Shown here piece by piece: positions 23,101 through 49,346 of a DNA stretch of 64,000 nucleotides (its first letter is position 1; each line of letters begins with the position of its first letter). The translations under genes and the position numbers were made by a program. The stretch lies in contig CP070751.1 of assembly GCA_020348445.1 (NCBI GenBank), forward strand, positions 3,758,495 to 3,822,494. The letters are read 5' to 3'. The notes under the pieces were generated by a model that saw nothing but the letters and a program-made list of their open reading frames with translations, searched no databases and had not been told where the DNA came from. This DNA comes from Thermoplasmata archaeon (GTDB lineage Archaea; Thermoplasmatota; Thermoplasmata; GCA-020350865).

Positions 23101-23217
23101 GGGGAGCTTATCTATTAGATAAACCTTGAATCCTGCATCTGCAAGATCAAGTGATGATTGCATTCCGGAAATTCCACCCCCGACAACAAGAACCGCTCCC
23201 ACCTTATCATTGCTCAT
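20200..23217 (-). CDS. hdrA: two-FAD HdrA-family flavoprotein (BamE-like / QmoA+QmoB-like), copy 1
   Basis: Two GGGxSG FAD motifs; FPTNDCAMC; CVGSR...CSSVCC; IGVFICHCG; inserted and C-terminal 2x[4Fe-4S] ferredoxin motifs. Confidence 0.95.
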   Translation of the reverse strand: MSNDKVGAVLVVGGGISGMQSSLDLADAGFKVYLIDKLPSIGGVMSQLDKTFPTNDCAMCIMAPKLVGTGRHHNIEVISNTEIESIEGEAGNFNVNLVRRPRRINEEKCTGCGVCGAKCPVEAIDEYNWGLTRRGATFIRYPQSVPLKFMIDKEKCIGCGICQEECKAEAVEYDQEEQKFDLNVGSIVLSPGYSMFDPSLKTEYGYGRYKNVVSSMEFERFLSATGPFAGTVMRPSDGDIPEKVAFLQCVGSRDSQAGSEYCSSVCCMFAMKEAIIAQEHSEGLKSHIFFMDLRAFGKEFDDYYTRAQEEHKIKFTRCRVAEVREVPETNNLIIKYVEDGEVKEEEFNMVVLSTGFRPPENVKEFAETLGIDLNKYDFCSTGVFSPLETSREGVYVSGVFNGPKDIPDTVAQASGAAAKASSIISSERGKMITPKEYPPERDVLGEDPRIGVFICHCGINIGGVVNVPDVVEYAKTLPNVEHAEHNLYTCSEDTQKGIKEKIVEHNLNRVIVASCTPRTHEPLFRSTTKEGGLNPYLFEMANIRDQCSWVHMHDADNATKKAKDLVRMAVAKSRLLEPLYKLELNVFQSGLVIGGGLSGMTAALEMAKQGFEVHLVEREKELGGNLRNIYHVLSEKGEDPQKMLKEIIEKVKNDDKIKLHLETTVKSIEGFMGSFTTELSDDTKIEHGVVIVATGGQEYKPTEYLYREDSRVLTQMDLEGKLAKDEIKPNSVVMIQCVGSRIEERPYCSRICCADAIKNALKIKEKNPDAQIIVLYKDIRSYGFREDYYREAADKGVRFIRYDDENKPEVTKEGDDLVVSINDPILGEHIKIKPEYVVLSAATLPQPDNEELAKMLKIPLSKDKFFLEAHMKLRPVDFATEGVFLCGLAHSPKFIDESISQACGAVSRACTILSDEIMELEPTISEIIDENCDGCAYCIDPCPFNALTLIEYMRNGNVKKTVERNEAACKGCGVCMATCPKRGVMVKGFTLDQISAMIGAALEVV

Positions 23218-24005
23218 GCTTTCACCTCCGGTACAATGGAGATGTATTTGGGTGTAAATCCTTCGATTGAGTCCAGTGCAAGCTGATTTCTCTTTCTAAG
23301 AAAGACCACATGATCCAGAATTCTGTCTGTAGGAAGATCAATCTCAGAGGCGAGCTCCTTTACTGACATTGGTTTTTCGGTAATTAGGCCAAGTAGTCTC
23401 TTCCTTTCAAACTCGGCCTCGATGGCGTCCTCCATAAACTCGTCCCACTCCTCCTGACTCTTGGTTTCATTATATACATTACCCTGTTCCACTATCTTTC
23501 TCTCTTTTGAAACAATGGCTCTGAGTCTGAAATCCAGTGCTGCGAGCTTGGCCGCATTTATATTGGCCATTAGTTTCTCATCCGGTTTCTCTCCAGATAA
23601 CGGGCTCGGCCCCAATTCCTGAATTTGCTTGGGAAATTCTCTCATGAGTATAGCAAATCTTTCACCTTCTGATGCTGCAACCCATTCCATTCTGAGCCTT
23701 TCAGGCTCCAATCCAGCTTTCTTAACAAGCTGTCTCGTCATCTTTATCTTTCTTTCAGCCTGGTAGTTGCCCTCAAGGTAATGGCAGTCTCCAGGGTGGC
23801 ATCCACCTATAAACACACCATCCACACCCTGGGTAAAGGCTTCGAGGACGATATAGGGATCGATTCTTCCTGAACACATGACTCTGATGATCCTGATGTT
23901 TGGAGGATACTGGAATCTGGAAACACCTGCCAAATCGGCTCCTGCATATGAACACCAGTTGCATAAGAAGCCAACAATTTTCGGTTCAAATTCAGTCTCA
24001 GCCAT
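23214..24005 (-). CDS. mvhD: MvhD with C-terminal extension ending in a winged-helix-like domain
   Basis: MvhD Cys motifs plus ~130 aa tail including PMSVKELASEIDLPTDRILDHVVFLRKRN. Confidence 0.9.
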   Translation of the reverse strand: MAETEFEPKIVGFLCNWCSYAGADLAGVSRFQYPPNIRIIRVMCSGRIDPYIVLEAFTQGVDGVFIGGCHPGDCHYLEGNYQAERKIKMTRQLVKKAGLEPERLRMEWVAASEGERFAILMREFPKQIQELGPSPLSGEKPDEKLMANINAAKLAALDFRLRAIVSKERKIVEQGNVYNETKSQEEWDEFMEDAIEAEFERKRLLGLITEKPMSVKELASEIDLPTDRILDHVVFLRKRNQLALDSIEGFTPKYISIVPEVKA

Positions 24006-27000
24006 CTAGTTCACCTCCTTTACAGCAGCAACAACCTGTGCAATAAGTTGCTCGTCAGTGAACTGTTTAATAGAGGCTGCCTTCTCGGGACAACTTGCAG
24101 CGCATGTCCCACAGCCTTTGCAGAGCACTTCGGTTACCCTTGCTATACCATTTTCATCTTTTTCGATTGCATTGAAGGGACATATGACCACGCACGTTCC
24201 GCATCCTGAACATATATCTTCATCTATACTGGAAACCATTCCTTCAGCTTCCAAGGTTTTCTTGGAAAGTATTGTTGCGGCTCTGGAAACAGCTGCACTT
24301 GCCTGGGATACACATTCCTCAAAGAATTTCGGTGAATGGGCAAGCCCGCATAGGAATATACCCTCTGTTGCAAATTCAACTGGACGAAGTTTCATGTGGG
24401 CTTCCAAGAAGAATTTATGTTTGGAAAGGGGCACCTTCAACATCTGTGCCAAATCAGCATTATCTGGGTGAGGGATAGTGGCTGCACTCAAAACTAAAAC
24501 GTCGGGTTTGATTGTTATTTCCTCTCCTAAAAAGGGCTCCCAGATCTTCACCTCCAATCCCTTCTTATCAGCAACCTTTGGCTTGGTTTCGTCATCGTAT
24601 CTTATGAACTTGACTCCATTTTTTGCAGCCTCCTCGTAGAATACCTCGCTGAATCCATATGTTCTTATATCCTTGAATAAGACATAAACACTCGTTGCTG
24701 GATTCATTTCCTTGACCTTCAAGGCGTTCTTCACGGCCTCGGTGCAGCATACCCTGCTGCAATATGGTCTCTCATCATTTCTGCAGCCAACGCATTGAAT
24801 CATCACAACTGTGTCTGCATCCATCTTCTTCTTTGCCAGCTTTCCTTCAAATTCCAGTTGAGTCATTACGTTGTCGTTCTCCCCGTAAAGGTACTCTTTT
24901 GGTTTGTGCTCCATCCCTCCCGTGGCAACTATCACTATACCATGCTCGATTTCCTTTTCTTCGCCATTTTGGTCGATTGTTGTCTTGAAGTTTCCGATGT
25001 AACCAGATATATCCTTTACTGTGCTGTTTGTAAACACATGAATCTTCTTATCTGAATTTACGTTTTTAATCAATTCCTTCAGTTTTTTCTGGACATCCTT
25101 TTTTTCACCCACCATTTCATAGTGGACCCTCTTCATGAGGCCTCCAAGTTCGTTTTCTCTTTCCACAATGAACGCCTCGAAACCTTGTTTTGAAAGCTCC
25201 TGTGCCGCTGTGATACCAGAAAGACCACCGCCTATAACAAGACCTGATGGTTTGACTTCAATTGGGACCCTTGTGAGAGGTTCTAATAATCCTGCCTTTG
25301 CCACCACCATTCGAACCAGGTCTTTTGCCTTCTGTGTGGCTTTTGCAGGTTCATGCATGTGAACCCATGAGCATTGGTCACGAATATTTGCCATCTCGAA
25401 TAAATAAGGATTCAGGCCCGCTTCTGCACACGTATTTTGGAATAAGGGTTGATGGGTTCTTGGAGTACAGGAAGCCACAATAACCCTGTTTAGATTGTTC
25501 TCTTCAATTTTCTCTCGTATTTTTTTCTGGGTATCCTGTGAACATGTATACAAATTGTTCTCTGCATAAGCAACATTCGGTAGGGTCTTTGCATATTCCA
25601 CGACACCAGGCACATCCACAACCCCGCCTATGTTGATTCCGCAGTGGCATATGAAGACACCTATGCGCGGCTCCTCACCACTTACTTCTTTTTCAGGGGG
25701 GTATTCCTTTACTGTAACCAGTTTCCCCCTCTCGGAAGCGATGACAGAAGATGCTTTAGCCGCAGCACCACTAGCCTCTGATACACTATCGGGAATGTCC
25801 TTTGGAGCCCCGAATGCTCCACCCACAAATATACCAGGTTTGGAGGTTTCCAGTGGTGAGAACAGAATGTCTGTTGAGCAAAAATCATATGGATTTAATT
25901 GTACCCCAAGTTTTTCTGAAAGGTCCTTTGCATCCTTTGGTGCCGTCATGCCAACGGCAAGGGCAACCATATCGAAGACCTCCGAGACAAGGTTACCCTT
26001 GTCTATAAAGGTCACCAGCAGATTATTTGTGATAGGATCCTCTGCAATGGATGATATTCTATTGTTTTTAACAAATCTAATGCCGTGTTCTTTTTCTGCC
26101 CTCACATAATAATCGTCGAACTCCTTTCCAAAGGCTCTCATATCCATGAAGAATATGGTGGCTTCCAAACCTGGATTATGCTCTTGAGCAATAACAGCCT
26201 CCTTTATCGCGAACATACAGCATACTGAAGAACAGTAGGGATTACCTATGCTTCTATCCCTGGAACCAACACATTGAACGAAGGCTATCTTCTTTACCAC
26301 TTCACCGTCTGAGGGTCTTAATACTAATCCGCCAAACGGACCCGTTGCAGAAAGCATTCTCTCAAGTTCAAGGCTTGATACAACGTTTGGAAATCGACCA
26401 TAACCGTATTCTTTTCTTTTTTGAACTAAATCGAACTCGTCAAAACCAGGGGAAAGAATGATTGATCCCACTTCCAATACCTTTGTTTCGGGCTCCTGGC
26501 TGTAAACTATGGCCCCGGCTTTGCAAAGTCTCTCACAGTTACCGCAACCAATGCAGTAATCCTTGTCTATTGAAAAAATCAGTGGTACGGCTTGGGGGTA
26601 TTTGACAAATATGGCTTTGCGGACTTTTAATCCTTTATTGTATTCGTCCACCACCTCCACAGGGCATTTTTGTGTACAAATGCCGCACCCTGTACATTTG
26701 CTTTCATCTATGAATCTCGACTTTTTGGAAACAGTGACCTTGAAATTTCCTGCTTTTCCCTCGATTTTGTCGATGGTTGAATTGGTAATCAAATCTATGT
26801 TCCTATGTCGTCCAGTTTCCACCAATTTTGGGGCCATTATACACATTGCACAGTCATTTGTTGGGAATGTTTTGTCAAGCTGGGCCATGGCTCCACCAAT
26901 ACTAGGACTCTTGTCCACAAGATAGACTCGATATCCTGAATCCGCCAGATCCAATGAGGACTGCATCCCTGCAATACCGCCTCCGACGACCATAACTGCT

Positions 27001-27017
27001 CCAACAGAGTCTGTCAT
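24006..27017 (-). CDS. hdrA: two-FAD HdrA-family flavoprotein, copy 2
   Basis: Same motif set as copy 1. Confidence 0.95.
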   Translation of the reverse strand: MTDSVGAVMVVGGGIAGMQSSLDLADSGYRVYLVDKSPSIGGAMAQLDKTFPTNDCAMCIMAPKLVETGRHRNIDLITNSTIDKIEGKAGNFKVTVSKKSRFIDESKCTGCGICTQKCPVEVVDEYNKGLKVRKAIFVKYPQAVPLIFSIDKDYCIGCGNCERLCKAGAIVYSQEPETKVLEVGSIILSPGFDEFDLVQKRKEYGYGRFPNVVSSLELERMLSATGPFGGLVLRPSDGEVVKKIAFVQCVGSRDRSIGNPYCSSVCCMFAIKEAVIAQEHNPGLEATIFFMDMRAFGKEFDDYYVRAEKEHGIRFVKNNRISSIAEDPITNNLLVTFIDKGNLVSEVFDMVALAVGMTAPKDAKDLSEKLGVQLNPYDFCSTDILFSPLETSKPGIFVGGAFGAPKDIPDSVSEASGAAAKASSVIASERGKLVTVKEYPPEKEVSGEEPRIGVFICHCGINIGGVVDVPGVVEYAKTLPNVAYAENNLYTCSQDTQKKIREKIEENNLNRVIVASCTPRTHQPLFQNTCAEAGLNPYLFEMANIRDQCSWVHMHEPAKATQKAKDLVRMVVAKAGLLEPLTRVPIEVKPSGLVIGGGLSGITAAQELSKQGFEAFIVERENELGGLMKRVHYEMVGEKKDVQKKLKELIKNVNSDKKIHVFTNSTVKDISGYIGNFKTTIDQNGEEKEIEHGIVIVATGGMEHKPKEYLYGENDNVMTQLEFEGKLAKKKMDADTVVMIQCVGCRNDERPYCSRVCCTEAVKNALKVKEMNPATSVYVLFKDIRTYGFSEVFYEEAAKNGVKFIRYDDETKPKVADKKGLEVKIWEPFLGEEITIKPDVLVLSAATIPHPDNADLAQMLKVPLSKHKFFLEAHMKLRPVEFATEGIFLCGLAHSPKFFEECVSQASAAVSRAATILSKKTLEAEGMVSSIDEDICSGCGTCVVICPFNAIEKDENGIARVTEVLCKGCGTCAASCPEKAASIKQFTDEQLIAQVVAAVKEVN

Positions 27018-27799
27018 GCCTCCACCTCCTGGGTTTGAGCTAGGTACATTGGTGTTGTACCTTCGATACCCTCTAGTCTAATCAGATTCCTGTCCCTCAA
27101 TGTAACGATATGTTTAAGAATGTCCCTTGAAGGGACTTTCATCTTATCAGCAAGCCCTTTGACAGATTGTGGTTTGTCTTTAGCTAGAAGAAGGATTCTT
27201 GTACGTACGAGCTCTTCATCGATTGCATTTTCCATCAACTCATCTATCCTTTCCTGGGGTATTTTTTCATCATAGACGTTTTCCTTTTCAACCAGAGCAA
27301 GCTCTTTGCCAACAAGTGTTCTTAACCTGAAATCTTCTACAGCGTTTCTTGCGGCATAAAGGGATTCCATGATTAGCAAATTGGGTTTCTCTCCAGCTAC
27401 TGGATTTGGTCCCAAGGATCTGACCTGTTCTGTGAAATCCCTCATGGTCTTGGCAAATCTCTCACCTTCGGAGGCGGCTATCCATTCAAGGCTTAATCTC
27501 TCTGGTTCGAGACCGGACTTTGCAAGGACCTTCTTCAGCATTTTCACTCTCCTCTCAGTATGATAATTCCCCTCCATGTAATGGCAATCACCTGGGTGAC
27601 ATCCGCCAATGAGCACCCCGTCAGCACCTTGGATGAACATCTCGATAACAAACAGGGGATCAACCCTACCGGAGCACATCACCCTCACGATTCTGATATT
27701 GGGTGGATACTGAAATCTGCTAACACCTGCCAAATCTGCTCCTGCGTAACTACACCAATTGCACAAGAAACCAACAATCTTCGGTTCAAATGCCTTCAT
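27014..27799 (-). CDS. mvhD: MvhD-wHTH fusion
   Basis: MvhD motifs plus PQSVKGLADKMKVPSRDILKHIVTLRDRN. Confidence 0.9.
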   Translation of the reverse strand: MKAFEPKIVGFLCNWCSYAGADLAGVSRFQYPPNIRIVRVMCSGRVDPLFVIEMFIQGADGVLIGGCHPGDCHYMEGNYHTERRVKMLKKVLAKSGLEPERLSLEWIAASEGERFAKTMRDFTEQVRSLGPNPVAGEKPNLLIMESLYAARNAVEDFRLRTLVGKELALVEKENVYDEKIPQERIDELMENAIDEELVRTRILLLAKDKPQSVKGLADKMKVPSRDILKHIVTLRDRNLIRLEGIEGTTPMYLAQTQEVEA

Positions 27800-27822: not shown

Positions 27823-28107
27823 TCACTCATCCTCCACTCCCGACATCAATCCTCTTACACAAACTGAGAAATTACATGAATCTGATCTTGCCCTCTCACA
27901 GTAATGACATCTTAAAGTCAGAAGCACTTCTCTTACGATCCATTCCTTTGTCTCGTCATCAACATCTGGAAGGTTCTTTTTAATCTCCATAATACTTTTA
28001 CTCTGTACATCCTTCCATTTTGGTTGTGTTGATAGGTGCATTCTCTTTTTCCATGCATTCCTCATCTCTTCGATCTTCTTTTGTTCTTCTTCGTTTAATT
28101 CACTCAA
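27823..28107 (-). CDS. small Cx2Cx7Cx4C protein, copy X1
   Basis: LTLRCHYCERARSDSCNFSVCVRGL; TTG start after GGAGGGA; four paralogs in the window. Confidence 0.9.
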   Translation of the reverse strand: MSELNEEEQKKIEEMRNAWKKRMHLSTQPKWKDVQSKSIMEIKKNLPDVDDETKEWIVREVLLTLRCHYCERARSDSCNFSVCVRGLMSGVEDE

Positions 28108-31100
28108 GTTGATCCCTCCTTTAGGGCAGCAATGGCCTGAGAGAGAAGTTGAATGTCGGTGAAATGTGCAATATCTATGGCCTTCTCAGGGCATGCTGCG
28201 CCACAAGTCCCGCATCCCTTGCATAGAACCTCGGCTACCTTTGCCTTCAATTCTTCCATATCAACTCTAATTGCACCATATGGACATACCATCTCGCAGG
28301 TTCCACACCCTGTACATTTATCCTCGTTAACTGAAGATACAGTGCCTTCCACAAAGAGTTTTTCCTTGGATAGGATGGTGGCTGCTCTTGATACTGCTGC
28401 ACTTGATTGAGCAACACATTCCTCGAAGAATTTTGGTGAATGAGCAAGACCACAAAGGAATATACCTTCTGTTGCAAATTCTACTGGGCGAAGTTTCATA
28501 TGTGCTTCCAAAAAGAATTTGTGCTTGCTGAGGGGGACCTTCAATATCTGTGCCAAATCTGTATTATCCGTGTGAGGGATCGTTGCTGCACTCAGAATTA
28601 ATAGGTCTGGTCGAAGCACCAGGTCCTCGTTAAGGAATTGCTCTTTGATCTTTACCTCAATTCCTTTTTTATCGCTTACCTTGGGCTTTGTTTCATCATC
28701 GTATCTAATGAACTTTATACCCTTTCTCGCTGCTTCCTCATAAAATATCTCGCTGAATCCATAGGTTCTGATGTCCTTGAATAGAACATATATGTTTGCA
28801 TCTGGTTTTAATTCCTTTATGTTCAAGGCGTTTTTCACCGCCTCGGTACAGCAAACCCTGCTGCAATAAGGTCTCTCTGGCGTTCTGGAACCTACACATT
28901 GAATCATCACTATCGTGTTTGCATCGATTTTTTGCTCTTTAGCCATTTTTTCTTCCAGCTCGAGCTGAGTTAGAACGTTTTCGTTTTTACCATAGAGGTA
29001 TTCAGAGGGCTTGTACTCCTCCCCTCCAGTAGAGACTATGACGATTCCATGTTCGATTTCCTTATCTTCACCGTTATGATCTATTATTGTTTTGAAGTTG
29101 CCAATATATCCGGATACATCTTTTACAGTGCTATTTGTGAATACATGGATTCTTTCATCAGAATCGATGTTCATGACGATTTCTTTCAATTTCTTTTGTA
29201 TGTCTTTTTGCTCGCCCATTAATTCGTGATGTATTCTCTTCATGAGTCCTCCAAGCTCATTCTCTCTCTCAACGATAAAGGCTTCATAACCTTGTTTGGA
29301 TAGTTCCAAGGCTGAATTCATACCGCTTATCCCACCACCTATGACCAAGGCAGATGGTTTTACTTCAATGGGAACCTTTGGCAATGGTGAATTCAATCTT
29401 GCCTTGGTTACAGCCATTCTAACTAAATCCTTTGCTTTCTCTGTAGCGGCATCAGGTTCTCGCATATGAACCCATGAGCACTGATCACGAATATTAGCCA
29501 TCTCGAAAAGATACGGATTTAATCCTGCTTCTGCCACCGTATTTTGGAACAATGGTTGATGGGTCCTTGGGGTGCAAGAAGCCACTATCACCCTATTCAG
29601 CCCATGCTCCTCGATTTTTTCTTTTATCTTTTGTTGAGTATCCTGTGAGCAGGTGTAAAGGTTATTCTCAGCATATGCTACGTTCGGCATAGTTTTTGCA
29701 TACTCAACCACATCGGGTACATCCACTACACCGCCGATGTTGATGCCACAATGACAAACAAAAACGCCTATACGAGGTTCCTCCTCACCTATCTCTCTCT
29801 CAGGCGGGTACTCCTTTACAGTTACCAATTTCCCCCGCTCAGAGGAAATAACTGACGATGCTTTTGCTGCCGCGCCACTTGCCTCTGATACACTGTCGGG
29901 AATGTCCTTTGGTGCCCCAAATGCCCCACCAACAAATATTCCTGGGCGTGAGGTCTCTAACGGGGAAAATAAAATATCTGTTGAGCAAAAATTATATTCA
30001 TTCAAATCTACATTAAGCTTCTCGCTGAGGTTCTTTGCATCTTTAGGTGCCGTCATCCCAACTGCAAGTGTTACGAGGTCGAACTCTTCTGTGACAAGTT
30101 CCCCCTCTTCGATATAGTTTATAATCAAATTATTGGTATTTGGATTTTCAGCGATTGCGGATATCCTATTGTTCTTTACGAACCTTATACCGTGCTCTTT
30201 CTCAGCTCTGATATAATAATCATCGAACTCCTTACCAAAGGCTCGCATGTCCATGAAGAATATAGTGGCTTCCAACCCAGGGTTATGTTCCTGAGCTATC
30301 ACCGCCTCTTTTATTGCGAACATACAGCATACAGAGGAGCAGTATGGATTGCCAATTGATCTATCGCGGGAACCAACGCACTGGATGAACGCCATCTTCT
30401 TTGAGACCTTTCCGTCAGAAGGTCTTAGAACCAGTCCCCCATAAGGACCTGTTGCGCTCAACATGCGCTCTAGCTCAAGACTTGATACCACATTCAGATA
30501 TTTTCCATAACCGTACTCTTTGCGTTTTTTGGTGAGGTCGAACTCATCGAAGCCTGGCGTGACGATAATAGAGCCCACCTCCAGTTGCATTTTTTCCTCG
30601 GTTTGATCATACGCAATGGCCCCTGCTCCACAAACCTCGGAGCAGACGCCGCATCCGATACATATATCCTTATCGATAGCATACACTGACGGCACAGCTT
30701 GGGGATACCTAACAAAAATTGCTTTTCTAAGTTTGAATCCTTTATTGTACTCATCTGGCACCTCAACGGGGCATCTTTGGGTACATATTCCACAACCCGT
30801 ACATTTTGTCTCATCCACTCGTCGAGAGTGTTTTGATATAGTGACCGTAAAATGCCCTGCATCACCCACAACCTCTTCCATATCTGCGTTGGTTATCAAC
30901 TTAATATTTTGATGTCTTCCCGTCTCTACCAATTTTGGAGCCATTATACACATGGCACAATCGTTGGTAGGGAAAGTTTTATCCAATTGGGACATAGCCC
31001 CTCCGATGGTTGGTGATTTTTCCAATAAATATACTTTAAATCCTGAATCCGCTAGATCAAGAGATGATTGCATGCCGGAAATTCCTCCTCCGATGACCAA

Positions 31101-31127
31101 GACCGCACCAACTTTGTCGTTGCTCAT
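28104..31127 (-). CDS. hdrA: two-FAD HdrA-family flavoprotein, copy 3
   Basis: Same motif set; closest to copy 2 (shared TDILFSPLETS, KHKFFLEAH). Confidence 0.95.
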   Translation of the reverse strand: MSNDKVGAVLVIGGGISGMQSSLDLADSGFKVYLLEKSPTIGGAMSQLDKTFPTNDCAMCIMAPKLVETGRHQNIKLITNADMEEVVGDAGHFTVTISKHSRRVDETKCTGCGICTQRCPVEVPDEYNKGFKLRKAIFVRYPQAVPSVYAIDKDICIGCGVCSEVCGAGAIAYDQTEEKMQLEVGSIIVTPGFDEFDLTKKRKEYGYGKYLNVVSSLELERMLSATGPYGGLVLRPSDGKVSKKMAFIQCVGSRDRSIGNPYCSSVCCMFAIKEAVIAQEHNPGLEATIFFMDMRAFGKEFDDYYIRAEKEHGIRFVKNNRISAIAENPNTNNLIINYIEEGELVTEEFDLVTLAVGMTAPKDAKNLSEKLNVDLNEYNFCSTDILFSPLETSRPGIFVGGAFGAPKDIPDSVSEASGAAAKASSVISSERGKLVTVKEYPPEREIGEEEPRIGVFVCHCGINIGGVVDVPDVVEYAKTMPNVAYAENNLYTCSQDTQQKIKEKIEEHGLNRVIVASCTPRTHQPLFQNTVAEAGLNPYLFEMANIRDQCSWVHMREPDAATEKAKDLVRMAVTKARLNSPLPKVPIEVKPSALVIGGGISGMNSALELSKQGYEAFIVERENELGGLMKRIHHELMGEQKDIQKKLKEIVMNIDSDERIHVFTNSTVKDVSGYIGNFKTIIDHNGEDKEIEHGIVIVSTGGEEYKPSEYLYGKNENVLTQLELEEKMAKEQKIDANTIVMIQCVGSRTPERPYCSRVCCTEAVKNALNIKELKPDANIYVLFKDIRTYGFSEIFYEEAARKGIKFIRYDDETKPKVSDKKGIEVKIKEQFLNEDLVLRPDLLILSAATIPHTDNTDLAQILKVPLSKHKFFLEAHMKLRPVEFATEGIFLCGLAHSPKFFEECVAQSSAAVSRAATILSKEKLFVEGTVSSVNEDKCTGCGTCEMVCPYGAIRVDMEELKAKVAEVLCKGCGTCGAACPEKAIDIAHFTDIQLLSQAIAALKEGST

Positions 31128-31435
31128 TAATAAATCCCCCCTATTTCTCTTCCTGACATAAGTCCTCGGATACAGATTGAGAAGTTACATTGATCTGTTC
31201 TTGCCCGCTCGCAACTATGGCATCTTAAAGTTAACAAAAGTTCTCGGGTTATCTTTTTCTTTGTTTCCTCGTCGATGTCTGGGAGACTTGTTTTACAAAG
31301 TTGTATGATCTTATTTTGTGTTTGTCCCCAACTTGGTATGGTGGATATACGGCTTTTGTAATCCCATCTGCTTCTTATTTCATCAACAGTTTTCTTATCC
31401 TTTTTGCTCAATTCGCTTTTAGTGTTCTTGGTCAC
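31127..31435 (-). CDS. small Cx2Cx7Cx4C protein, copy X2
   Basis: LTLRCHSCERARTDQCNFSICIRGL; GTG start; overlaps both neighbours. Confidence 0.9.
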   Translation of the reverse strand: MTKNTKSELSKKDKKTVDEIRSRWDYKSRISTIPSWGQTQNKIIQLCKTSLPDIDEETKKKITRELLLTLRCHSCERARTDQCNFSICIRGLMSGREIGGIY

Positions 31436-32217
31436 TTTATCCCCTCCTCTACTGCTAAATATAAAGGAGTATCATTGTCAATCCTGTCAAGCATCACCAG
31501 ACCTCGGTCCCTTAACGTCACAATATGTTGTAATACTCGATTGGGGGGAAGTTCTAGGCGCTGAGCCAGTTCATCTACTGATAACGCTTCATCCCTAACT
31601 TCAAAAATAATACTACATCTATCTAATTCATAATTGATGGCGGCGTCAAGTACGGTGTCTATTTCCTCCTGAGGAACTTTCTCATTGTATACATTTCCTT
31701 CCATAACCAAATCCAATTCTCTTGAAACAAGTAACTTCAATCTAAAGTCCTTCACAGCATTTTTTGCTGCAAATAATGCCTTAAGAATATCAACGTTAGG
31801 TGTTGTTCCGCTAACGGGTGATGGCCCAATTTCTTTTATTTGCTTTGTGAATTCTCGGATAGTTTCTGCAAATCGTTCGCCTTCGGAAGCAGAAATCCAT
31901 TCTAGTCTGAGTCGCTCCTCTTCAAACCCTATCCTCTTCAATAATTTCTTTGTCAGTTTTACCCTCTTTTCAGCAAAATAATTACCTGTTTGATAATGGC
32001 AATCTCCAAAATGACATCCACCAACAAGGATCCCATCTGCACCTTGGATGAACATTTCCAAGATAAGAGATGGTTCGACCCTACCACTACACATTACCCT
32101 TACTATCCTAAGATTTGCAGGATATTGATATCTGCTCACACCTGCCAGATCAGCACCTGCATATGAGCACCAGTTGCATAAAAATCCCAGAATTTTAGGT
32201 TCGAATTTTGTTGCCAT
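31432..32217 (-). CDS. mvhD: MvhD-wHTH fusion
   Basis: MvhD motifs plus ALSVDELAQRLELPPNRVLQHIVTLRDRG. Confidence 0.9.
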   Translation of the reverse strand: MATKFEPKILGFLCNWCSYAGADLAGVSRYQYPANLRIVRVMCSGRVEPSLILEMFIQGADGILVGGCHFGDCHYQTGNYFAEKRVKLTKKLLKRIGFEEERLRLEWISASEGERFAETIREFTKQIKEIGPSPVSGTTPNVDILKALFAAKNAVKDFRLKLLVSRELDLVMEGNVYNEKVPQEEIDTVLDAAINYELDRCSIIFEVRDEALSVDELAQRLELPPNRVLQHIVTLRDRGLVMLDRIDNDTPLYLAVEEGIK

Positions 32218-39544: not shown

Positions 39545-39645
39545 GCCCCCTTAAGGATCGAACATGATTACATATTACCTTCCCTTTATACACTGTACAT
39601 AGGGGAGGAGGGAATTGCTCTTTTATGATATATATTTTATGACGA

Positions 39646-39691
39646 TATATAACACTTTTTAGATGGTATTCGCCGAAATACCACTGGTATT
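39646..39691 (-). promoter_or_regulatory. promoter (BRE-TATA) and inverted-repeat operator of the second hdr transcription unit
   Basis: Minus strand AAAAAGTGTTATATA near 39646-39660; TGGTATT-N6-AATACCA-C-TGGTATT at 39664-39691 in a 200-bp intergenic gap. Confidence 0.5.
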
Positions 39692-39743
39692 TTTCCATAT
39701 CTCGTCATGGATATCTGCGGTATATTTTTCAATAGTTATGGTA

Positions 39744-41003: not shown

Positions 41004-41420
41004 TTATTTCGAAGATCCGAGGGGATTTGGACCAAGAGCCTTTATTTGCTCAACAAATTCGTTCATGGTCTGTGCAAACTTCTCTGCTTCAGAAGCAGAA
41101 AGCCATTCACCCCTCAATCTCCCAGAGCCCAAACCCAGCATGTCAAGTATTTGCTGTGTGGTTTCAATCCTCTCTTTTGCACGAAGATTGCCAGATATGT
41201 AATGGCAATCGTCCAACTTGCATCCAGTCACCATTACACCGTCGGCCCCGTACTCAAAGGCCTTCATAATGAATTCAGGTTCGATTCTTCCTGAGCACAT
41301 GAACCTTATGATATTGACACAGGAAGGATATTTATATCGATTGATACCTGCTAAATCAGCGGATGTGTAAGAGCACCAATTACAGGAGAATGCAATTATC
41401 TTTGGTTCGAACTCAGTCAG
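41004..41420 (-). CDS. mvhD: MvhD-type subunit, stand-alone, apparent CTG start
   Basis: SCNWCSY, MCSGR, GCKLDDCHY, EWLSASE; GGAGGTG-GGAGA-CTG ACT GAG TTC GAA CCA; gives 138 aa. Confidence 0.88.
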   Translation of the reverse strand: MTEFEPKIIAFSCNWCSYTSADLAGINRYKYPSCVNIIRFMCSGRIEPEFIMKAFEYGADGVMVTGCKLDDCHYISGNLRAKERIETTQQILDMLGLGSGRLRGEWLSASEAEKFAQTMNEFVEQIKALGPNPLGSSK

Positions 41421-41721
41421 TCTCCCACCTCCTAATCGCCGAAGGAGCATTAATATCATATGTAAAATTCGAGCAGGTGAGGGCGAGTTTCTTTTTCCCC
41501 CATGTTCCGATGAAAAACTGATGTTTTTCAAGGCCTCGGGAAATCTTTGATTTCCCAAGGTTTCTTTGCGAGCCCGAGCCATCGTGGTGGACAGAAATTG
41601 AATCTAAACACTTACTGTCCTCCACTGTGTAGTGGAAAACATATTTAGTATTAGGGGTATTGTTTTCCACGACAGCAGAGAATTTTACCTCAAAGAAAAA
41701 GGCGGGTTCGAAATCAGTCAA
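41413..41721 (-). CDS. hypothetical 102-aa protein inside the hdr operon
   Basis: TTG start after a G-rich SD; fills the gap between hdrA and mvhD and overlaps mvhD by 8 nt. Confidence 0.55.
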   Translation of the reverse strand: MTDFEPAFFFEVKFSAVVENNTPNTKYVFHYTVEDSKCLDSISVHHDGSGSQRNLGKSKISRGLEKHQFFIGTWGKKKLALTCSNFTYDINAPSAIRRWETD

Positions 41722-43568: not shown

Positions 43569-44714
43569 TTACTTTATTCTTTCTATTATAGCCGATATCA
43601 GATCACCAACAGGAATATCCACTTTCTCCTTCTCAACAGGTATCTCCTTCCATGTGGCACAAGTGAAGTGAATCACACATTTAGGACAAGTTGTAATGAG
43701 CTTATCGGCCCCTGTATTTTTCGCCTCCATTAACCGATCTATCTGCATTATCTTAGAGAGGGATTCACAGGTTGCAAAGGCATTTACTCCGCAGCATGCA
43801 CTGTTCTCCTTTATGTTCTCCATTTCAATCAATTCAAATCCCGCAGCTTCAATGAGTTCCCTGGGGCTGTCGTAGATCTCCAAATGCCTTCCAAGTCTGC
43901 ACGGGTCATGGTATGTAACTTTCTCATTTCCATCGCTTTTAAATTCCAGTTTCCCGTCATCCACCAAATCCATTAGATAATCTGTGATGTAAACCAGCTC
44001 AAAATCCAGATCACCTGCAATATCCTGATAATCGAAATCAAATGTTCTCATCCCTTCTGGGCAGGAAAAAACCACGGTCTTTGCACCAGCTTCCTTTATT
44101 GCCTTGATATTGAGATTCATTAATTTGTCAAAATTATCTTCATCCCCTGTCCAATTGAGATCGTGACCGCAGCATACCTCGTTTTTGCTCATTGCTGGTG
44201 TGATACCGGCTTTGTTCAACACCCTTACATTGTTTTTAGCAATATCAAGGATACCGGCCTTCCTTTCCTCGAAAATCTTATCTAGATGAGCCTGGCAGCC
44301 AGAGAAATAGTACACATCACCCTTTTCTGCAACCTTTAAATCATCGGTAACCCAGCTTAACCTGTTCTGTGGTAACTGGTGAGATTGGATTCTGGCAATT
44401 GTCTGCATCAATCCTCCCTGGGAGCACGTGGGCTCAAATCCGTCTAAAACAGATTCACTTCTAAGTCCTCTGATGAACTCGGTGTAATCCACTTTGTAAG
44501 GACACATCTGACTGCACATGGCACATGTAGTACAGCGCCATATGTCCATGTTCTGGGCAAGGCCCCCCTCCACACCCTCCAATGCCTTAACCACTATCAG
44601 TCTTGGAGCAAAGTTCTGGTCCAGTTTGGCAACGGGACATACAGTCGTGCATTTACCGCATTCAACACAATCATATGCTCCTGTGTCATCGATGAGATCA
44701 TCTATTGCGGACAT
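43569..44714 (-). CDS. HdrD/GlpC-like protein (4Fe-4S dicluster + two CCG domains)
   Basis: CVECGKCTTVCP, CTTCAMCSQMCP; GC...VCCG...CPEG; HDPC...ACCG...CPKC. Confidence 0.88.
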   Translation of the reverse strand: MSAIDDLIDDTGAYDCVECGKCTTVCPVAKLDQNFAPRLIVVKALEGVEGGLAQNMDIWRCTTCAMCSQMCPYKVDYTEFIRGLRSESVLDGFEPTCSQGGLMQTIARIQSHQLPQNRLSWVTDDLKVAEKGDVYYFSGCQAHLDKIFEERKAGILDIAKNNVRVLNKAGITPAMSKNEVCCGHDLNWTGDEDNFDKLMNLNIKAIKEAGAKTVVFSCPEGMRTFDFDYQDIAGDLDFELVYITDYLMDLVDDGKLEFKSDGNEKVTYHDPCRLGRHLEIYDSPRELIEAAGFELIEMENIKENSACCGVNAFATCESLSKIMQIDRLMEAKNTGADKLITTCPKCVIHFTCATWKEIPVEKEKVDIPVGDLISAIIERIK

Positions 44715-47700
44715 TCGATTTCCTCCTTCTGAGGTTTAATGGATTGTTCTATCGGATTCAATGGATTGGGCCCGAGCTCTTTGACCTTGTTTACGAACTC
44801 TGTCATGACCTCTGCAAATCTTTTTCCTTCGGATGCAGAGATCCATTCTAATCGAACACGCCTTTCATCCATACCCAACAATCCTATAAGTTCTTTTACG
44901 TTTTTGACCCTAATTTCCGCCTTCTCATTTCCTGATATATAATGGCAGTCGCCGATATGACAGCCTGCAACCAGTATACCATCCACTCCTTTATGAAGTG
45001 CTTCCATAATAAATGATGGGGAGATTCTTCCCGAGCACATCACCCTTATCACCCTGATATTTGGCGGGTACTGAAATCTGGAAACACCTGCCAAATCAGC
45101 CCCGGCATAGGCACACCAATTGCAGCAGAATGCTAGTATGAAGGGTTCAAATTCCTCCCTCAATTTATGCCCTTCAAGTGCAGAGTCTATCATGGTATGA
45201 ATCTGATCATTTTTGAAATGCTTTGTAATGATGGCGTTATTGCAGCAACTTGCAGCACATGCTCCGCAGCCCTTGCATAAAGCCTCATTGATTTTCGAAT
45301 GCTTTTTCCCTTCATCATCTGTAATGAGCTCGGGGGCGCCGAACTCACAGATATCGACGCATTCTCCACATCCTCGACATTTTGACTCGTCAACAACAGA
45401 GATTACAGCATTTGCTTCAAAGAATTTTTTAGAAAGCAAAGTTGCAGCCCTTGATACCGTCCCCTTAGCCTGTGAAATACATTCCTCCAAGAATTTTGGT
45501 GAATGCGCAAGCCCGCACAAAAAGACCCCCTCGGTTGCGAAATCCAAAGGACGTAATTTCATATGAGCCTCCAGGAAAAATCCATCCTTGGAGAGGGGAA
45601 CCTTAAGCATCTTGGCGATTTTTTCATTGTCGACACTGGGTATTGTGGCTGTGCTTAGAACCAAAAGATCTGGATTGATATCGATATTTTCACCTAGAAA
45701 ATGATCGAAAATTGATACAGAAAGCTCACCACCTGCAAGCTGAACATCGGGCTTTGAATCGTCATAGTACCTGATGAATATTATACCTGATCTTGCAGCC
45801 TCTTCATAGAAGATCTCGCGAAAGCCGTATGTTCTCATGTCCTTGTATAGGATGTATATATTTGCTTCGGGATTCAATTCCTTCAACTTCAAAGCATTTT
45901 TCACGGCCTCTGAGCAGCAGACCCTGCTGCAATATGTCCGTGTCTCATCCCTGCTTCCCACACACTGAATCATAACTACTGTCTTTGCATCCACTTGGCC
46001 TTTTCCTAATCTCTCTTCAAAATCCAGTTGGGTGATGATCCTCTCATCCTGGCCGTATAGGTACTCTTTAGGCTCGTAACTGATGCCGCCGGTAGCAACG
46101 ATAACGGCTCCATGTTCCAATGTCTTCTCCTCGCCGTTTTCAGAAATAGTGGTTTTAAAATCTCCCACACAACCCTCGATATTCTTGATTTCAGAATTTA
46201 CATACACATTTATCTTATCATTGGAATTGATCTTGTCTATGGTTTCCTTTAAAAATTCCTGAAGATTTTCTCCGGTGAGCATATAATGCAGCCGCTTGAG
46301 ATTTCCTCCAAGTTCCTTCTCTTTTTCAACGATATGAGCAGCAAATCCATGCTCAGCCAATTCCAAGACAGCCATCATACCCGATATTCCACCGCCTATG
46401 ACAAGGGCCGATTGATTTATGGGAATTTCCACTTTATACAATGGTTCAAGCAATCTCGTTTTTGAAATGGCCATTCTCACAAGGTCCTTAGCCTTCCTTG
46501 TTGCAGCCTCTGGCTCGTGCATGTGAACCCATGAGCACTGATCGCGGATATTAGCCATTTCAAAGAAGTATGGATTCAACCCCGCCTCTCTTACAGTATT
46601 CTGAAAAAGCGGTTCATGGGTTCGGGGTGTACAGCTGGCCACGACAACGCGGTTGAGATTATGCTCCTCTATTTTTGATTTGATTTTTTGCTGCGTGTCC
46701 TGTGAACATGTGTAGGGGTTACTCTCTGCATAAACAACATTAGGTAGGTTTTTAACGTACTCCACAACCTCTGGAACCTTAACTACACCACCTATGTTGA
46801 TTCCGCAGTGGCAAATGAATACTCCCAAACGGGGCTCCTCCTGGGCTACCTCTTTTTCAGGTGGATACTCCTTTACTTCAACAAGTTTGTCCCTCTCGGA
46901 CGCAATCAAGGACGAAGCACATGCAGCAGCACCGCTTGCTTGGGCCACAGTATCTGGAATATCCTTTGGAGCCGAAAATGCCCCTGAGACGAAAACCCCT
47001 TTCCTGTTTGTCTCAAGAGGTGAAGTAACACTTGTTTCGCAAAAGTTGTAATCATTTAACTCAACACCCAATTTCTCGGCGAGCTCCAAGGCAGTATCTG
47101 GTGAGTCCATGCCAACAGAAAGAACAACCAGATCGAACTCTTCTTCCTTTAACTCCCCCTCGTCAACATAATTCAATATTAAATTGTTGGTGTTTTTATC
47201 CTCTTTTACTCCCGAGACCCTGTTGTTCTTCACAAACCCGATTCCATGCTCCTCTTCTGCTCTAATGTAATAATCATCAAATTCCTTGCCAAATGCCCGC
47301 ATGTCCATAAAGAATATGGTTGATTTTAACCCAGGTGCATGCTCCTGTGCTATTACAGCCTCCTTGATTGCGAACATGCAACATACAGATGAGCAATATG
47401 GATTTCCAGACGTCCTATCTCTGGAACCAACACATTGAATAAATGCAACTTTTTTTGGAATCTCGCCGTCAGAGGGTCGCAGAACCAATCCATTGAAGGG
47501 TCCTGTGGCACTGAGCATGCGCTCCATTTCCAAACTTGAGATCACATTTGGGAATTTTCCATAACCATATTCCTTGCGTTTTGATAGAATGTCAAATTCC
47601 TTAAATCCAGGTGACATGATGATGGAGCCAACTTGTATATTGATCTCCTTTTTTTCCTGGGAATATTTTATGGCCTCTGCCTCACACTGGGTCTCGCAGA

Positions 47701-48235
47701 GCCCGCAGCCAATGCATATCTCCTGGTCAATACAATGAACAGGTGGAACAGCTTGAGGATACTTTACATGGATGGCTTTTCTTCTCTTTAGGCCCTTGTT
47801 GTACTCGTCCTTTACTTCAATGGGGCATCTTTGTGTACAAATACCGCATCCCGTACAACGACTTTCATCCACATATCTCGGCCTCTTGGTGAGGGTGACC
47901 TTGAAATTTCCTGCTCCTCCTTCTACATTCTCCAAATCTGCATTTGTGATGAGCTGGATATTGTGATGGCGTCCAGTCTCCACAAGTTTGGGAGCCATGA
48001 TGCACATTGCACAATCATTTGTAGGGAAGGTCTTATCAAGCTGGGACATTGCCCCACCGATGCTGGGGCTGTTATCGAGGACATAGACTTTGAATCCTGA
48101 ATCTGCCAGATCCAGTGCAGACTGCATGCCTGAGATTCCGCCACCTATTATGAGAATCGCGCCTACCTTTTTTGATTCAGCTTCCTTAATGACTGAAGCA
48201 GCTTCTACCTCGACCTGTCCATCCTTTGCCTCTAT
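44702..48235 (-). CDS. hdrA: two-FAD HdrA fused to C-terminal MvhD, apparent ATA start
   Basis: Track ATG 48127 lies inside the FAD motif (GGGISG-M); the frame is open upstream through KKVGAILIIGGG to ATA 48235; C-terminal CCNWC/MCSG/GCHIGDCH MvhD domain. Confidence 0.92.
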   Translation of the reverse strand: MEAKDGQVEVEAASVIKEAESKKVGAILIIGGGISGMQSALDLADSGFKVYVLDNSPSIGGAMSQLDKTFPTNDCAMCIMAPKLVETGRHHNIQLITNADLENVEGGAGNFKVTLTKRPRYVDESRCTGCGICTQRCPIEVKDEYNKGLKRRKAIHVKYPQAVPPVHCIDQEICIGCGLCETQCEAEAIKYSQEKKEINIQVGSIIMSPGFKEFDILSKRKEYGYGKFPNVISSLEMERMLSATGPFNGLVLRPSDGEIPKKVAFIQCVGSRDRTSGNPYCSSVCCMFAIKEAVIAQEHAPGLKSTIFFMDMRAFGKEFDDYYIRAEEEHGIGFVKNNRVSGVKEDKNTNNLILNYVDEGELKEEEFDLVVLSVGMDSPDTALELAEKLGVELNDYNFCETSVTSPLETNRKGVFVSGAFSAPKDIPDTVAQASGAAACASSLIASERDKLVEVKEYPPEKEVAQEEPRLGVFICHCGINIGGVVKVPEVVEYVKNLPNVVYAESNPYTCSQDTQQKIKSKIEEHNLNRVVVASCTPRTHEPLFQNTVREAGLNPYFFEMANIRDQCSWVHMHEPEAATRKAKDLVRMAISKTRLLEPLYKVEIPINQSALVIGGGISGMMAVLELAEHGFAAHIVEKEKELGGNLKRLHYMLTGENLQEFLKETIDKINSNDKINVYVNSEIKNIEGCVGDFKTTISENGEEKTLEHGAVIVATGGISYEPKEYLYGQDERIITQLDFEERLGKGQVDAKTVVMIQCVGSRDETRTYCSRVCCSEAVKNALKLKELNPEANIYILYKDMRTYGFREIFYEEAARSGIIFIRYYDDSKPDVQLAGGELSVSIFDHFLGENIDINPDLLVLSTATIPSVDNEKIAKMLKVPLSKDGFFLEAHMKLRPLDFATEGVFLCGLAHSPKFLEECISQAKGTVSRAATLLSKKFFEANAVISVVDESKCRGCGECVDICEFGAPELITDDEGKKHSKINEALCKGCGACAASCCNNAIITKHFKNDQIHTMIDSALEGHKLREEFEPFILAFCCNWCAYAGADLAGVSRFQYPPNIRVIRVMCSGRISPSFIMEALHKGVDGILVAGCHIGDCHYISGNEKAEIRVKNVKELIGLLGMDERRVRLEWISASEGKRFAEVMTEFVNKVKELGPNPLNPIEQSIKPQKEEIECPQ

Positions 48236-48555
48236 CCCACCACCCCCTTCCCTGAAAGCAATCCTCTAATGCACACCGAGAAATGACAGGCATCGCTTCT
48301 TGCCCTCTCGCAGCTGTGGCATCTTAACGTGAGAAGTAATTCTCTTGTGATTTTCTTTCTTGTCTCTTCATCTATATCGGGGAGGTTTTCCTTGCAATCC
48401 TGAATGATCTTATTTTGAACCTGAGCCCAGGCGGGTAAGGTGGAGACCTTGTATTTTTTTCTCCAAGAGTTGCGAATATTTTTGATCTTGTCCAACTCTT
48501 CTTCTTTTATTTCCTTGTCACCATTATTAATTTCCATTTTTGTTCCCCTATTCAA
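48232..48555 (-). CDS. small Cx2Cx7Cx4C protein, copy X4
   Basis: LTLRCHSCERARSDACHFSVCIRGL; TTG start. Confidence 0.9.
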   Translation of the reverse strand: MNRGTKMEINNGDKEIKEEELDKIKNIRNSWRKKYKVSTLPAWAQVQNKIIQDCKENLPDIDEETRKKITRELLLTLRCHSCERARSDACHFSVCIRGLLSGKGVVG

Positions 48556-49346
48556 TCACTTTGGACATAGTTATATATTGGAGATGAGCCTTCGATTTTC
48601 TCCAGGCCCACCAATCCCCTGTCCCGAAGTACCACCAGGTGTTCTAGGACCTCTCTTGAGGGGGTTTTAATGTCCTGGGCTATATCTTTGACTGACCTGG
48701 ACTTTTTCATAAGTGACCTCAGAATTCTTTGTCTGAGCATCTCCTCCTCAATAATTTCATCCAGTATCCCATCAAATCGTTCATCTTCGATTTTGTTGTT
48801 GTAGACATTCCCCTTTTCAATTATGTTGTATGCTTTTGCGCAAAGTAATCTCAACCTGAAATCGTTGGCTGCATCCCTTGCTATTAACAATTGCTCCATA
48901 ATTTTCAGGTCAGGGGATTTGCCCGAGATCGGGCTTGGCCCAAGTTCCTTAATTTTGTTGGTCATGTCCTTCATTATTTCGGCAAATCTAACAGATTCTG
49001 ATGCAGAGACCCATTCCAATCTTAGCCTCTCTGGGTTCAACCCTACCCTTTGAAGCAGACTCTTGGTCATTTCTATCCTATACACTGTATGATAATTACC
49101 CTCCATGTAGTGACAGTCCCCGGGATGGCACCCGCCAATAAATACTCCATCAATACCCTGTATGAACATCTCCAGTATTATGGAAGGCTCGATTCTGGAA
49201 CTGCACATGACCCTAACGATTCTGATATTATGGGGGTACTGTATCCTGCTCACACCTGCCAAATCGGCTCCGGCATAACAGCACCAATTACAAAGGTAGC
49301 CTATTATCTTTGGATCGAACTCATCCAATGCCCCATCCCCATTCAC
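48552..49346 (-). CDS. mvhD: MvhD-wHTH fusion
   Basis: MvhD motifs plus SRSVKDIAQDIKTPSREVLEHLVVLRDRG; GTG start. Confidence 0.9.
   Translation of the reverse strand: MNGDGALDEFDPKIIGYLCNWCCYAGADLAGVSRIQYPHNIRIVRVMCSSRIEPSIILEMFIQGIDGVFIGGCHPGDCHYMEGNYHTVYRIEMTKSLLQRVGLNPERLRLEWVSASESVRFAEIMKDMTNKIKELGPSPISGKSPDLKIMEQLLIARDAANDFRLRLLCAKAYNIIEKGNVYNNKIEDERFDGILDEIIEEEMLRQRILRSLMKKSRSVKDIAQDIKTPSREVLEHLVVLRDRGLVGLEKIEGSSPIYNYVQSD

Follow-up and report, generated by a model that had tools for sequence, protein, structure and literature searches.

Five paralogous proteins encoded in an hdr gene array of a Thermoplasmata archaeon join an MvhD/FlpD [2Fe-2S] domain to a C-terminal tail of ~130 residues that ends in a winged helix. 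By the length of this extension, its winged helix, the homology of the tail and the position of the genes after HdrA, all five are long MvhD proteins of the BamF type. The tail itself is thus already known, and what is new is its genomic context. We propose that this BamF-type arm probably docks a partner protein, most likely the next HdrA, and in doing so links HdrA-MvhD modules toward a [NiFe] hydrogenase.

Within the window, by which we mean the whole 64,000-nucleotide stretch of DNA analyzed, the five genes lie on the minus strand and encode proteins of 261-268 residues with pairwise identities of 50-61%: P0001 (23214..24005, 263 residues, MvhD domain ~23613-24005, tail 23217-23612), P0002 (27014..27799, 261 residues, tail 27017-27412), P0003 (31432..32217, 261 residues, tail 31435-31827), P0004 (35530..36336, 268 residues, tail 35533-35928) and P0005 (48552..49346, GTG start, 264 residues, tail 48555-48941). 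A sequence-only reading of this DNA had claimed five tailed MvhDs, and the translated open reading frames bear it out. Pfam places FlpD/MvhD (PF02662) at residues ~8-137 of each, covering model positions 1-123 of 123 with E-values of 1e-52 to 1e-56 and scores of 175-190 bits against a gathering cut-off of 22.3; most of the tail gives no above-threshold Pfam match in any of the five. In a five-way alignment C14, C17, C43, C68 and C73 (P0003 numbering) are invariant, and the tail motifs to which that reading had drawn attention are invariant as GP-x-P-x2-G, DFRL(R/K), NVY, SV-x3-A, L-x-H-x-V-x-L-x2-R and P-x-Y. Foldseek superposes the modelled MvhD domain of P0003 on the solved chains 5ODC_D, 8RVU_F and 7BKB_F with TM scores of 0.91-0.97 and rmsd of 0.7-0.8 Å. 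The window's other three MvhD copies, as had also been claimed, stop right after the FlpD domain. These are a 148-residue protein (19753-20199, minus strand), which is the last MvhD of the array, on the side of the [NiFe] hydrogenase genes, a stand-alone MvhD in a 192-residue open reading frame (41004-41582) and a short MvhD at the C-terminus of a fused-dimer HdrA (44702..48127, minus strand) downstream of P0005.

AlphaFold2 predicts with high confidence that a helical hairpin opens the tail and that the conserved GNVYxEK loop and a winged helix follow. The model of entire P0003 has a pLDDT of 94.2 and a pTM of 0.89 (pLDDT 88.7 for the tail modelled alone) and comprises hairpin helices at residues 142-155 and 158-172, the GNVY loop, a helix at 183-206, helix-turn-helix helices at 214-221 and 225-237 and a wing at 241-255, the whole tail being placed rigidly on the MvhD domain. 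Residues both conserved and exposed in the tail include the GNVY loop, S213/V214, L229/H231/L235 and P251/Y253. When this model was compared with known structures using Foldseek and VIA, the final ~65 residues superposed on winged helices of the ArsR/SmtB, MarR, IclR, PadR and Z-alpha types (Z 9-11, rmsd 1.3-2 Å), so the predicted end of the tail is winged-helix-like, as the earlier reading had it, and not a non-HTH bundle. For the helical hairpin, which makes up the opening ~50 residues of the tail, no convincing structural match was found because the winged helix occupied the match lists.

A cryo-EM preprint on class II benzoyl-CoA reductase describes a fused HdrA dimer, BamE, and an MvhD-type subunit, BamF, that is more than 100 residues longer than other MvhD adaptors and whose winged helix interfaces with BamI (bioRxiv 10.64898/2026.04.10.717634). 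For comparison we used a bam cluster in a Desulfobacterota genome (locus L123), not that of G. metallireducens itself, in which the order AOR, Fe-S protein, CCG protein, 1045-residue double HdrA, long MvhD, NuoE-like, NuoF-like and Fer2_4/Fer4 protein corresponds to bamBCDEFGHI, as verified with Pfam. Its long MvhD (P0280) is 44% identical to P0003 across 243 residues, tail included (BLASTP), and the tail profile (alignment A3) matches it with an hhalign probability of 96.7% and an E-value of 4.3e-10 over 118 columns. The preprint attributes 'two Rossmann-fold domains' to BamF (bioRxiv 10.64898/2026.04.10.717634), whereas the model of P0003 contains no Rossmann fold beyond the MvhD fold. A literature search for MvhD with a winged helix, ArsR domain or C-terminal extension returned this preprint as its sole relevant match, and a PDB sequence search with a long MvhD, over entries that do not yet include the reductase models 29QY, 29RC and 29RN, returned no chain above 141 residues.

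The long MvhDs are interleaved with HdrA genes. Four BamE-like fused-dimer HdrA genes of 1003-1021 residues (20200-23217, 24006-27017, 28104-31127 and 32217-35282, minus strand) each have a long MvhD before them; the stop of P0001 overlaps the start of the first of these, and P0002 likewise overlaps the start of the second. Upstream, a double HdrA (1003-1117 residues) directly precedes four of the five long MvhDs and a split HdrA pair the fifth: P0004 comes after the pair (38237-39544 and 36333-38237), and P0005 comes after a 1117-residue HdrA (49343-52696) and before a small Cys protein and the HdrA::MvhD fusion, which is itself followed by an HdrD-like gene (43569-44714). The array end at which MvhD is tail-less adjoins genes for the small and large subunits of a [NiFe] hydrogenase (15896-18423). 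A Pfam search of the array genes and most of the larger flanking open reading frames found no NuoE-, NuoF- or Fer2_4-type protein that could stand for BamGHI. A TrmB-type regulator is also encoded near the array.

The arrangement extends well beyond the window. In a set of 79 loci spanning more than ten phyla, a double HdrA lies within 700 nt after a tailed MvhD in 73 of 75 cases and after an untailed MvhD in 3 of 58, both being raw counts. In the window's own genome all seven tailed MvhDs are followed by a fused-dimer HdrA. In the array, the stop codon of an arm gene overlaps the start codon of the gene after it. Exceptions to the gene-order rule are L022, L052, L124 and L125, in the last of which the gene before the tail is HdrD-like and no HdrA-like gene comes after it. 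In a tree of 150 MvhD domains, the tailed state changes only about four times and yields 1-3 independent contrasts, at which a contrast-based test has no power; the gene-order rule may for this reason largely reflect one conserved operon.

A search with the tail alone returned 139 representative clusters at E<=1e-3, whereas the whole long MvhD matched at least 8000 proteins of 143-457 residues, the best 120 of which cover nearly all of the query; genome contigs were scanned with a profile from a tail alignment (A4) narrower than A3. Archaeal and bacterial phyla alike conserve the tail, in which one Asn is invariant and positions held by Tyr, Glu and Pro are nearly so; as a conserved family it is therefore no chance extension. 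It also occurs in other forms. Free-standing tails of 126-130 residues sit between hdrB and a 1478-residue double HdrA in hdrCB-tail-hdrA-mvhD-metVF clusters, and an Archaeoglobaceae protein that combines the tail with a ferredoxin and a degenerate MvhD is encoded first in its operon with a double HdrA next; in both forms an HdrA always lies downstream and none upstream. The tail is internal in giant fusions, between MvhD and an NfnB/GltD-like module. Where a double HdrA follows the tail (L066, L118 and the five window proteins), the GN(V/F)YxE(K/R) loop is kept; it is missing from the BamF type, which precedes BamG, and from the L124 tail, after which no double HdrA is found. Stand-alone tails are present in metagenomic data as well (P0166 and P0181), and some homologues carry the automatic JGI name 'ArsR family regulator'.

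In the mechanism we propose, the N-terminal [2Fe-2S] MvhD domain would fit into the fused-dimer HdrA of the preceding gene, an arrangement seen in solved Hdr complexes, and the C-terminal module, predicted to be rigid on the MvhD domain, would serve as a protein-docking arm and would not read DNA. Its homologue in class II benzoyl-CoA reductase holds BamI, which belongs to the downstream-encoded electron-input module (bioRxiv 10.64898/2026.04.10.717634). Because the window genes searched include no BamGHI and a fused-dimer HdrA comes after every arm, the arm most likely grips the following HdrA, probably at its conserved N-terminal part with FAD and inserted ferredoxin. Such arm-HdrA contacts would wire successive HdrA-MvhD modules together, and the last module of the chain, having a plain MvhD, could take the classical partner, here the MvhAG-like [NiFe] hydrogenase beside the array. 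The data themselves show the domain composition, the fold, the homology to BamF-type proteins and the gene-order rule; that arm and HdrA touch, at which part of HdrA they do so and which way electrons run is what we infer.

The arm might instead dock something other than the next HdrA, namely a small four-Cys protein, its own module's upstream HdrA, or ferredoxin or another soluble carrier, which we regard as somewhat unlikely. A small protein of 94 residues with a CHxC-x7-C-x4-C motif (27823..28107, minus strand) is encoded just upstream of P0002 and is one of four paralogues beside long MvhDs (the others at 31127-31435, 35228-35533 and 48232-48555). These proteins flank P0002-P0005, have counterparts in the closest Thermoplasmata loci (L001, L009, L012 and L014) and in three of the five window cases lie between arm and HdrA, where they could be the true partner. 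P0001, however, has none beside it, and tblastn found none in the Bathyarchaeia, Asgard and bacterial loci, all of which keep the tail; a search of the ESM Atlas gave no usable match. The rigid placement of the tail (pTM 0.89) means that it could simply enlarge the contact with its own module's HdrA, but the free-standing tails and the Archaeoglobaceae form occur without an upstream HdrA and always with a downstream one.

The sequence-only reading had left open whether the tail makes an Fe-S redox regulator or a docking domain that takes the place of the MvhA interface. The present data support the docking half, in that the tail is homologous to that of BamF, whose winged helix contacts BamI, and gene order ties it to the downstream module. 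A one-component sensor that regulates the hdr array through its ArsR-like winged helix, with DNA binding set by the state of the MvhD [2Fe-2S] cluster, draws on the fold, with ArsR/SmtB, MarR and IclR regulators as best matches, on the existence of winged-helix Fe-S regulators such as NsrR, which also appears among the structural matches, on a basic L-R-x-(K/R)-G patch kept at the C-terminal end of the recognition helix, on the automatic ArsR names and on weak HTH_5/HTH_20 Pfam scores (P0005 alone exceeds the HTH_5 cut-off, at 24.8 against 22, the others scoring 14-26 bits, under the cut-offs). Yet the homologous winged helix of BamF lies at a protein interface (bioRxiv 10.64898/2026.04.10.717634), the genome has seven copies, five of them in a single operon with translational coupling, and fusion proteins carry the tail inside the chain. 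The window tails have net charges of -1 to -9 and a slightly acidic wing, and the AlphaFold2 models stop 3-6 residues past the wing, so the C-terminal dimerization helix, and with it the usual ArsR dimer, is missing. A TrmB-type regulator is encoded nearby. Inverted-repeat searches of 39500-39800 and 52650-53000, which span the intergenic regions 39545-39743 and 52697-52971, found only short AT-rich palindromes and no convincing operator-like one, a result that carries little information. On the homology to BamF we favor docking, and we judge the sensor to be quite improbable. The weak ArsR-like signal would also fit a tail left over from an old regulator-MvhD fusion that now merely stabilizes the fold and has no partner; given the conservation of the tail across archaeal and bacterial phyla, down to its invariant Asn, and its retention as a separate gene in some lineages, we attach very little weight to this explanation.

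Docking to the next HdrA would, in its furthest form, mean that the arms chain 5-7 double-HdrA bifurcation modules into a linear megacomplex that is fed by [NiFe] hydrogenase through the tail-less MvhD and couples flavin-based bifurcation steps in series, that the GNVYxEK loop selects HdrA over BamI, and that the arm is an overlooked extra subunit of Desulfobacterota complexes of the MetFV-HdrABC-MvhD type. We offer this picture tentatively, as something that may be so and not as our expectation. Many uncultured anaerobes, among them ANME-1, Bathyarchaeia, Asgard archaea, Thermoplasmata and sulfate reducers, have fused-dimer HdrA proteins and clusters with several hdrA copies, and the arm may bear on how these are wired. 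If the arm is a general connector and the next gene names its partner, gene order becomes a readable wiring diagram of these complexes. To our knowledge, benzoyl-CoA reductase is the only case of serially coupled bifurcation modules shown so far; such coupling would be widespread if the proposal is true. The automatic label 'hydrogenase delta subunit / ArsR regulator' is best not taken to mean that a gene encodes a regulator.

Compared with known systems, the long MvhDs share 55-61% identity over their first ~130 residues with the MvhD of MvhAGD-HdrABC and related complexes (5ODC chain D, 7BKB chain F and 8RVU chain F), along with the fold (TM 0.91-0.97) and the conserved Cys set. The solved chains, at 129-141 residues, are tail-less, align only to residues 1-136 of the long MvhDs and bind MvhG/A, Fdh or Elp modules at their outer face. 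ArsR/SmtB regulators (HlyU 4K2E, NolR 4OMY and SmtB 1R1T) have the same fold as the last ~65 residues (Z ~10, rmsd 1.5-2 Å, 20-35% identity), but the tail has no counterpart of their C-terminal dimerization helix. It has a helical hairpin and a conserved loop ahead of the winged helix, occurs fused to redox subunits or as a gene among theirs and, in the window copies, is acidic overall. The MetFV-HdrABC-MvhD clusters for methylene-tetrahydrofolate reductase and the HdrL-type giant HdrA proteins share the double-HdrA scaffold and, in Desulfobacterota, the same tail, as a separate 126-residue gene or inside a polypeptide; there the tail is not on a stand-alone MvhD, and HdrA carries an NfnB-like insert. 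BamF of BamBCDEFGHI likewise adds to an MvhD [2Fe-2S] domain a C-terminal extension of more than 100 residues with a winged helix at its end; its gene comes immediately after that of a fused-dimer HdrA (BamE), and its homology to the window proteins extends through the tail. The window differs from the bam system in lacking BamB/C and BamGHI, in having a double HdrA after the arm instead of the NuoE-like BamG, in the GNVYxEK loop that BamF-type tails do not have, in a Cys where BamF reportedly has selenocysteine and in carrying 5-7 copies per genome, whereas BamF is present once per complex.

Translation of the five minus-strand ORFs at 23214-24005, 27014-27799, 31432-32217, 35530-36336 and 48552-49346 gives long MvhD proteins of 261-268 aa with 50-61% pairwise identity. 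In all five, the first ~135 residues hold PF02662 FlpD/MvhD as a complete domain (E 1e-52 to 1e-56), and the remaining ~130 give weak, mostly sub-threshold Pfam matches to HTH_5, HTH_20 and PF0610-like_N. Solved MvhD chains found by PDB sequence search are 129-141 aa long and their alignment is confined to the N-terminal half of the long proteins. These results bear out the sequence-only reading, which had described five MvhDs with a ~130-aa tail; the tail motifs it listed are invariant across the five-way alignment, and the two stand-alone MvhDs and one fused MvhD said to lack the tail (ORFs of 148 and 192 aa and a domain joined to a 1141-aa HdrA) do lack it.

AlphaFold2, using 47 homologues, modelled the copy at 31432-32217 (P0003) with a pLDDT of 94.2 and a pTM of 0.89. 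Its N-terminal half superposes with MvhD of 5ODC, 7BKB and 8RVU, and its tail is predicted to comprise helices 142-155 and 158-172, a GNVY loop, a long helix (183-206), helix-turn-helix helices 214-221 and 225-237, and a beta wing (241-255); the isolated tail is predicted to adopt the same fold (pLDDT 88.7). The last ~65 residues match winged helices in Foldseek and VIA-align (Z 9-11, rmsd 1.3-2 A), both DNA-binding (ArsR/SmtB, MarR, IclR, PadR, Z-alpha) and protein-binding (ESCRT-II, cullin WHB). The earlier call of a winged-helix-like domain at the tail end is thus right; the fold by itself does not decide what the tail does.

The long MvhDs belong to a minus-strand hdr array spanning 52696 to 19753, which encodes six fused-dimer (double) HdrA proteins of 1003-1141 aa, one bearing a C-terminal fused short MvhD. 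The array also has another double HdrA, encoded by two separate genes (435 aa and 634 aa), as well as a single HdrA, an HdrD-like CCG protein and an FrhB-like protein. Each HdrA is followed by an MvhD, and genes overlap by 1-4 nt. Adjoining four of the five long MvhDs are minus-strand genes for small paralogous proteins of 94-107 aa (27823-28107, 31127-31435, 35228-35533 and 48232-48555), which carry a CHxC-x7-C-x4-C pattern and a conserved four-Cys C-terminus, LTLRCHxCERARxDxCxFSVCIRGL; they belong to no Pfam family, lack an Atlas match and, among 79 related loci, are limited to four from Thermoplasmata (L001, L009, L012 and L014). Convergent on the tail-less end of the array, positions 9012-18423 encode [NiFe] hydrogenase small (15896-16972) and large (16978-18423) subunits together with maturation factors (HycI, HypE-like and HypD), and two FKBP genes (18471-18896 and 19159-19623) separate the hydrogenase genes from the terminal tail-less MvhD. 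The genome, that of a Thermoplasmata-like archaeon, consists of one contig of 5.16 Mb; among named relatives, MAGs of Methanomassiliicoccales and Thermoplasmata are the nearest. The genome holds 22 MvhD/FlpD domain matches, seven tailed MvhDs and no match to McrA at an estimated completeness of 82%, which together point to a non-methanogenic member of the Thermoplasmata whose complement of Hdr and MvhD proteins is very large.

When the tail alone was searched against 1.8 billion representatives, 139 clusters matched at E<=1e-3, consisting of MvhD-plus-tail proteins of ~260 aa, tail-only proteins of 70-140 aa and a small number of long fusions. With few exceptions these fusions have the tail after an MvhD domain; P0247 and P0262 carry it within the chain, flanked by MvhD and an NfnB/GltD-like module. 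Species-representative genomes were scanned as well and gave 79 loci with tail matches, spanning archaea (Thermoplasmata, Bathyarchaeia, Asgard lineages, Nitrososphaeria and Archaeoglobaceae) and bacteria (Cloacimonadota, Anaerolineae, WOR-3, Bacillota and Desulfobacterota). Of 301 sampled genomes from the phylum of L069, a Desulfobacteraceae MAG locus, ~45-50 have strong matches (E below 1e-15). A recurrent ~236-aa ORF of Desulfobacterota (e.g. G249:C21:632-856 and G109:C13:94307-94531) matches weakly (E 1e-6 to 1e-11), only over positions 29-105 of the tail profile, and may represent an unrelated winged-helix family. In two long MvhDs, from Desulfobacteraceae (L069:5536-6339) and Desulfatiglandaceae (L079:5500-6297) MAGs, a TGA stands in frame at the conserved GG-C-H cysteine, suggesting selenocysteine at this cluster-region position; gene callers would break both genes there. 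The Desulfatiglandaceae locus also has GcvH-like (lipoyl/H-protein) domains fused to or adjoining double HdrA (L079:449-1837 and 2078-5518).

Across the 79 loci, the N-terminus of a double HdrA lies within 700 nt after the tailed MvhD in 73 of 75 judgeable cases, and an untailed MvhD is followed by a double HdrA in 3 of 58, one of the three being a misclassified long form. The loci commonly carry HdrA - MvhD(long) - double HdrA - MvhD(short) as a unit, and the short MvhD is often followed by an HdrD-like gene; the array in the window is an expansion of this unit, and the genome's two tailed copies outside the window are likewise followed by a double HdrA. Three variants show that the tail associates with the downstream HdrA rather than the upstream one. 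In Desulfobacterota, a free-standing tail gene of 126-130 aa has hdrB on one side and, on the other, a double HdrA of 1478 aa that carries an NfnB-like insert, after which come mvhD, metV and metF; the example in L118 (G253:C286, 7758-8138, minus strand; 126 aa, HTH_20 36 bits) lies inside hdrC-hdrB-tail-hdrA(1478 aa)-mvhD-metV-metF and may represent a subunit of MetFV-Hdr-type complexes that has gone unrecognised. In Archaeoglobaceae, an operon opens with a 276-aa protein (L066:5491-6321) that joins a 2x[4Fe-4S] ferredoxin, a degenerate MvhD-like domain in which the conserved Cys pattern is no longer present, and the tail; the next genes encode a double HdrA of 992 aa and a normal MvhD. The third variant is the bam cluster. 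Tails with a double HdrA after them (L066, L118 and the five of the window) keep the GNVYxEK loop; the L124 tail, which no double HdrA follows, lacks it. Over its first 154 residues (FAD fold with inserted ferredoxin), the downstream HdrA is 57-67% identical between the window archaeon and bacteria. Exceptions to the gene order are L022, L052, L124 and L125. Mapped on an MvhD tree with 150 domains, the tailed state shows only ~4 changes and yields only 1-3 independent contrasts; the rule thus reflects conservation of an operon to a greater degree than repeated convergence.

Of the two functions proposed for the tail, we favour docking, which draws on homology to BamF, the protein interface in class II benzoyl-CoA reductase (BCRII) and the downstream-HdrA gene order. 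The winged-helix fold and weak ArsR-like scores favour an Fe-S redox sensor that regulates transcription by binding DNA, but we consider this improbable: the homologous arm sits at a protein interface in BCRII, five copies occur within one coupled operon, and the tail is internal in some fusion proteins. Moreover, the window tails have a net charge of -1 to -9 with a slightly acidic wing, the AlphaFold2 models have no dimerisation helix beyond the wing, the two intergenic regions contain only short AT-rich palindromes, and a TrmB-type regulator has its own gene nearby. As a docking arm, the tail would hold the next module, encoded downstream, while the MvhD domain would bind the HdrA encoded upstream; in the window the module held would be another double HdrA, and the last module has a plain MvhD that could take the [NiFe] hydrogenase. 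This mechanism agrees with the earlier suggestion that the tail replaces the MvhA interface. We infer the arm-HdrA contact, the HdrA surface used and the direction of electron flow.

Earlier papers describe both fused HdrA dimers and the multiplicity of hdrA (PMC9012536, PMC11237513). In the literature searched, a long MvhD with a winged helix was previously described only for BamF; we did not find there its wide distribution outside bam clusters, its pairing with a following double HdrA, its five-fold repeat or the free-standing tail in metVF-hdr clusters. In BCRII (BamBCDEFGHI), BamE is reported to be a fused HdrA dimer and BamF an MvhD homologue >100 aa longer than other MvhDs, whose winged helix interfaces with BamI (preprint, bioRxiv 10.64898/2026.04.10.717634, April 2026). 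Among the tail hits, loci L123 and L126 have the bamBCDEFGHI order: AOR, Fe-S protein, CCG protein, 1045-aa double HdrA and long MvhD, then NuoE-like, NuoF-like and Fer2_4/Fer4 proteins. The long MvhD of L123 (P0280) is 44% identical to P0003 over 243 aa, tail included, and the tail profile alone matches it with 96.7% probability (E 4.3e-10); on these alignments, the window's long MvhDs are therefore homologues of BamF-type adaptors, tail included. The two systems differ in the downstream module, which is BamGHI in bam clusters and another double HdrA in the window, and in the GNVYxEK loop, which bam-type tails lack and the window's five tails keep.
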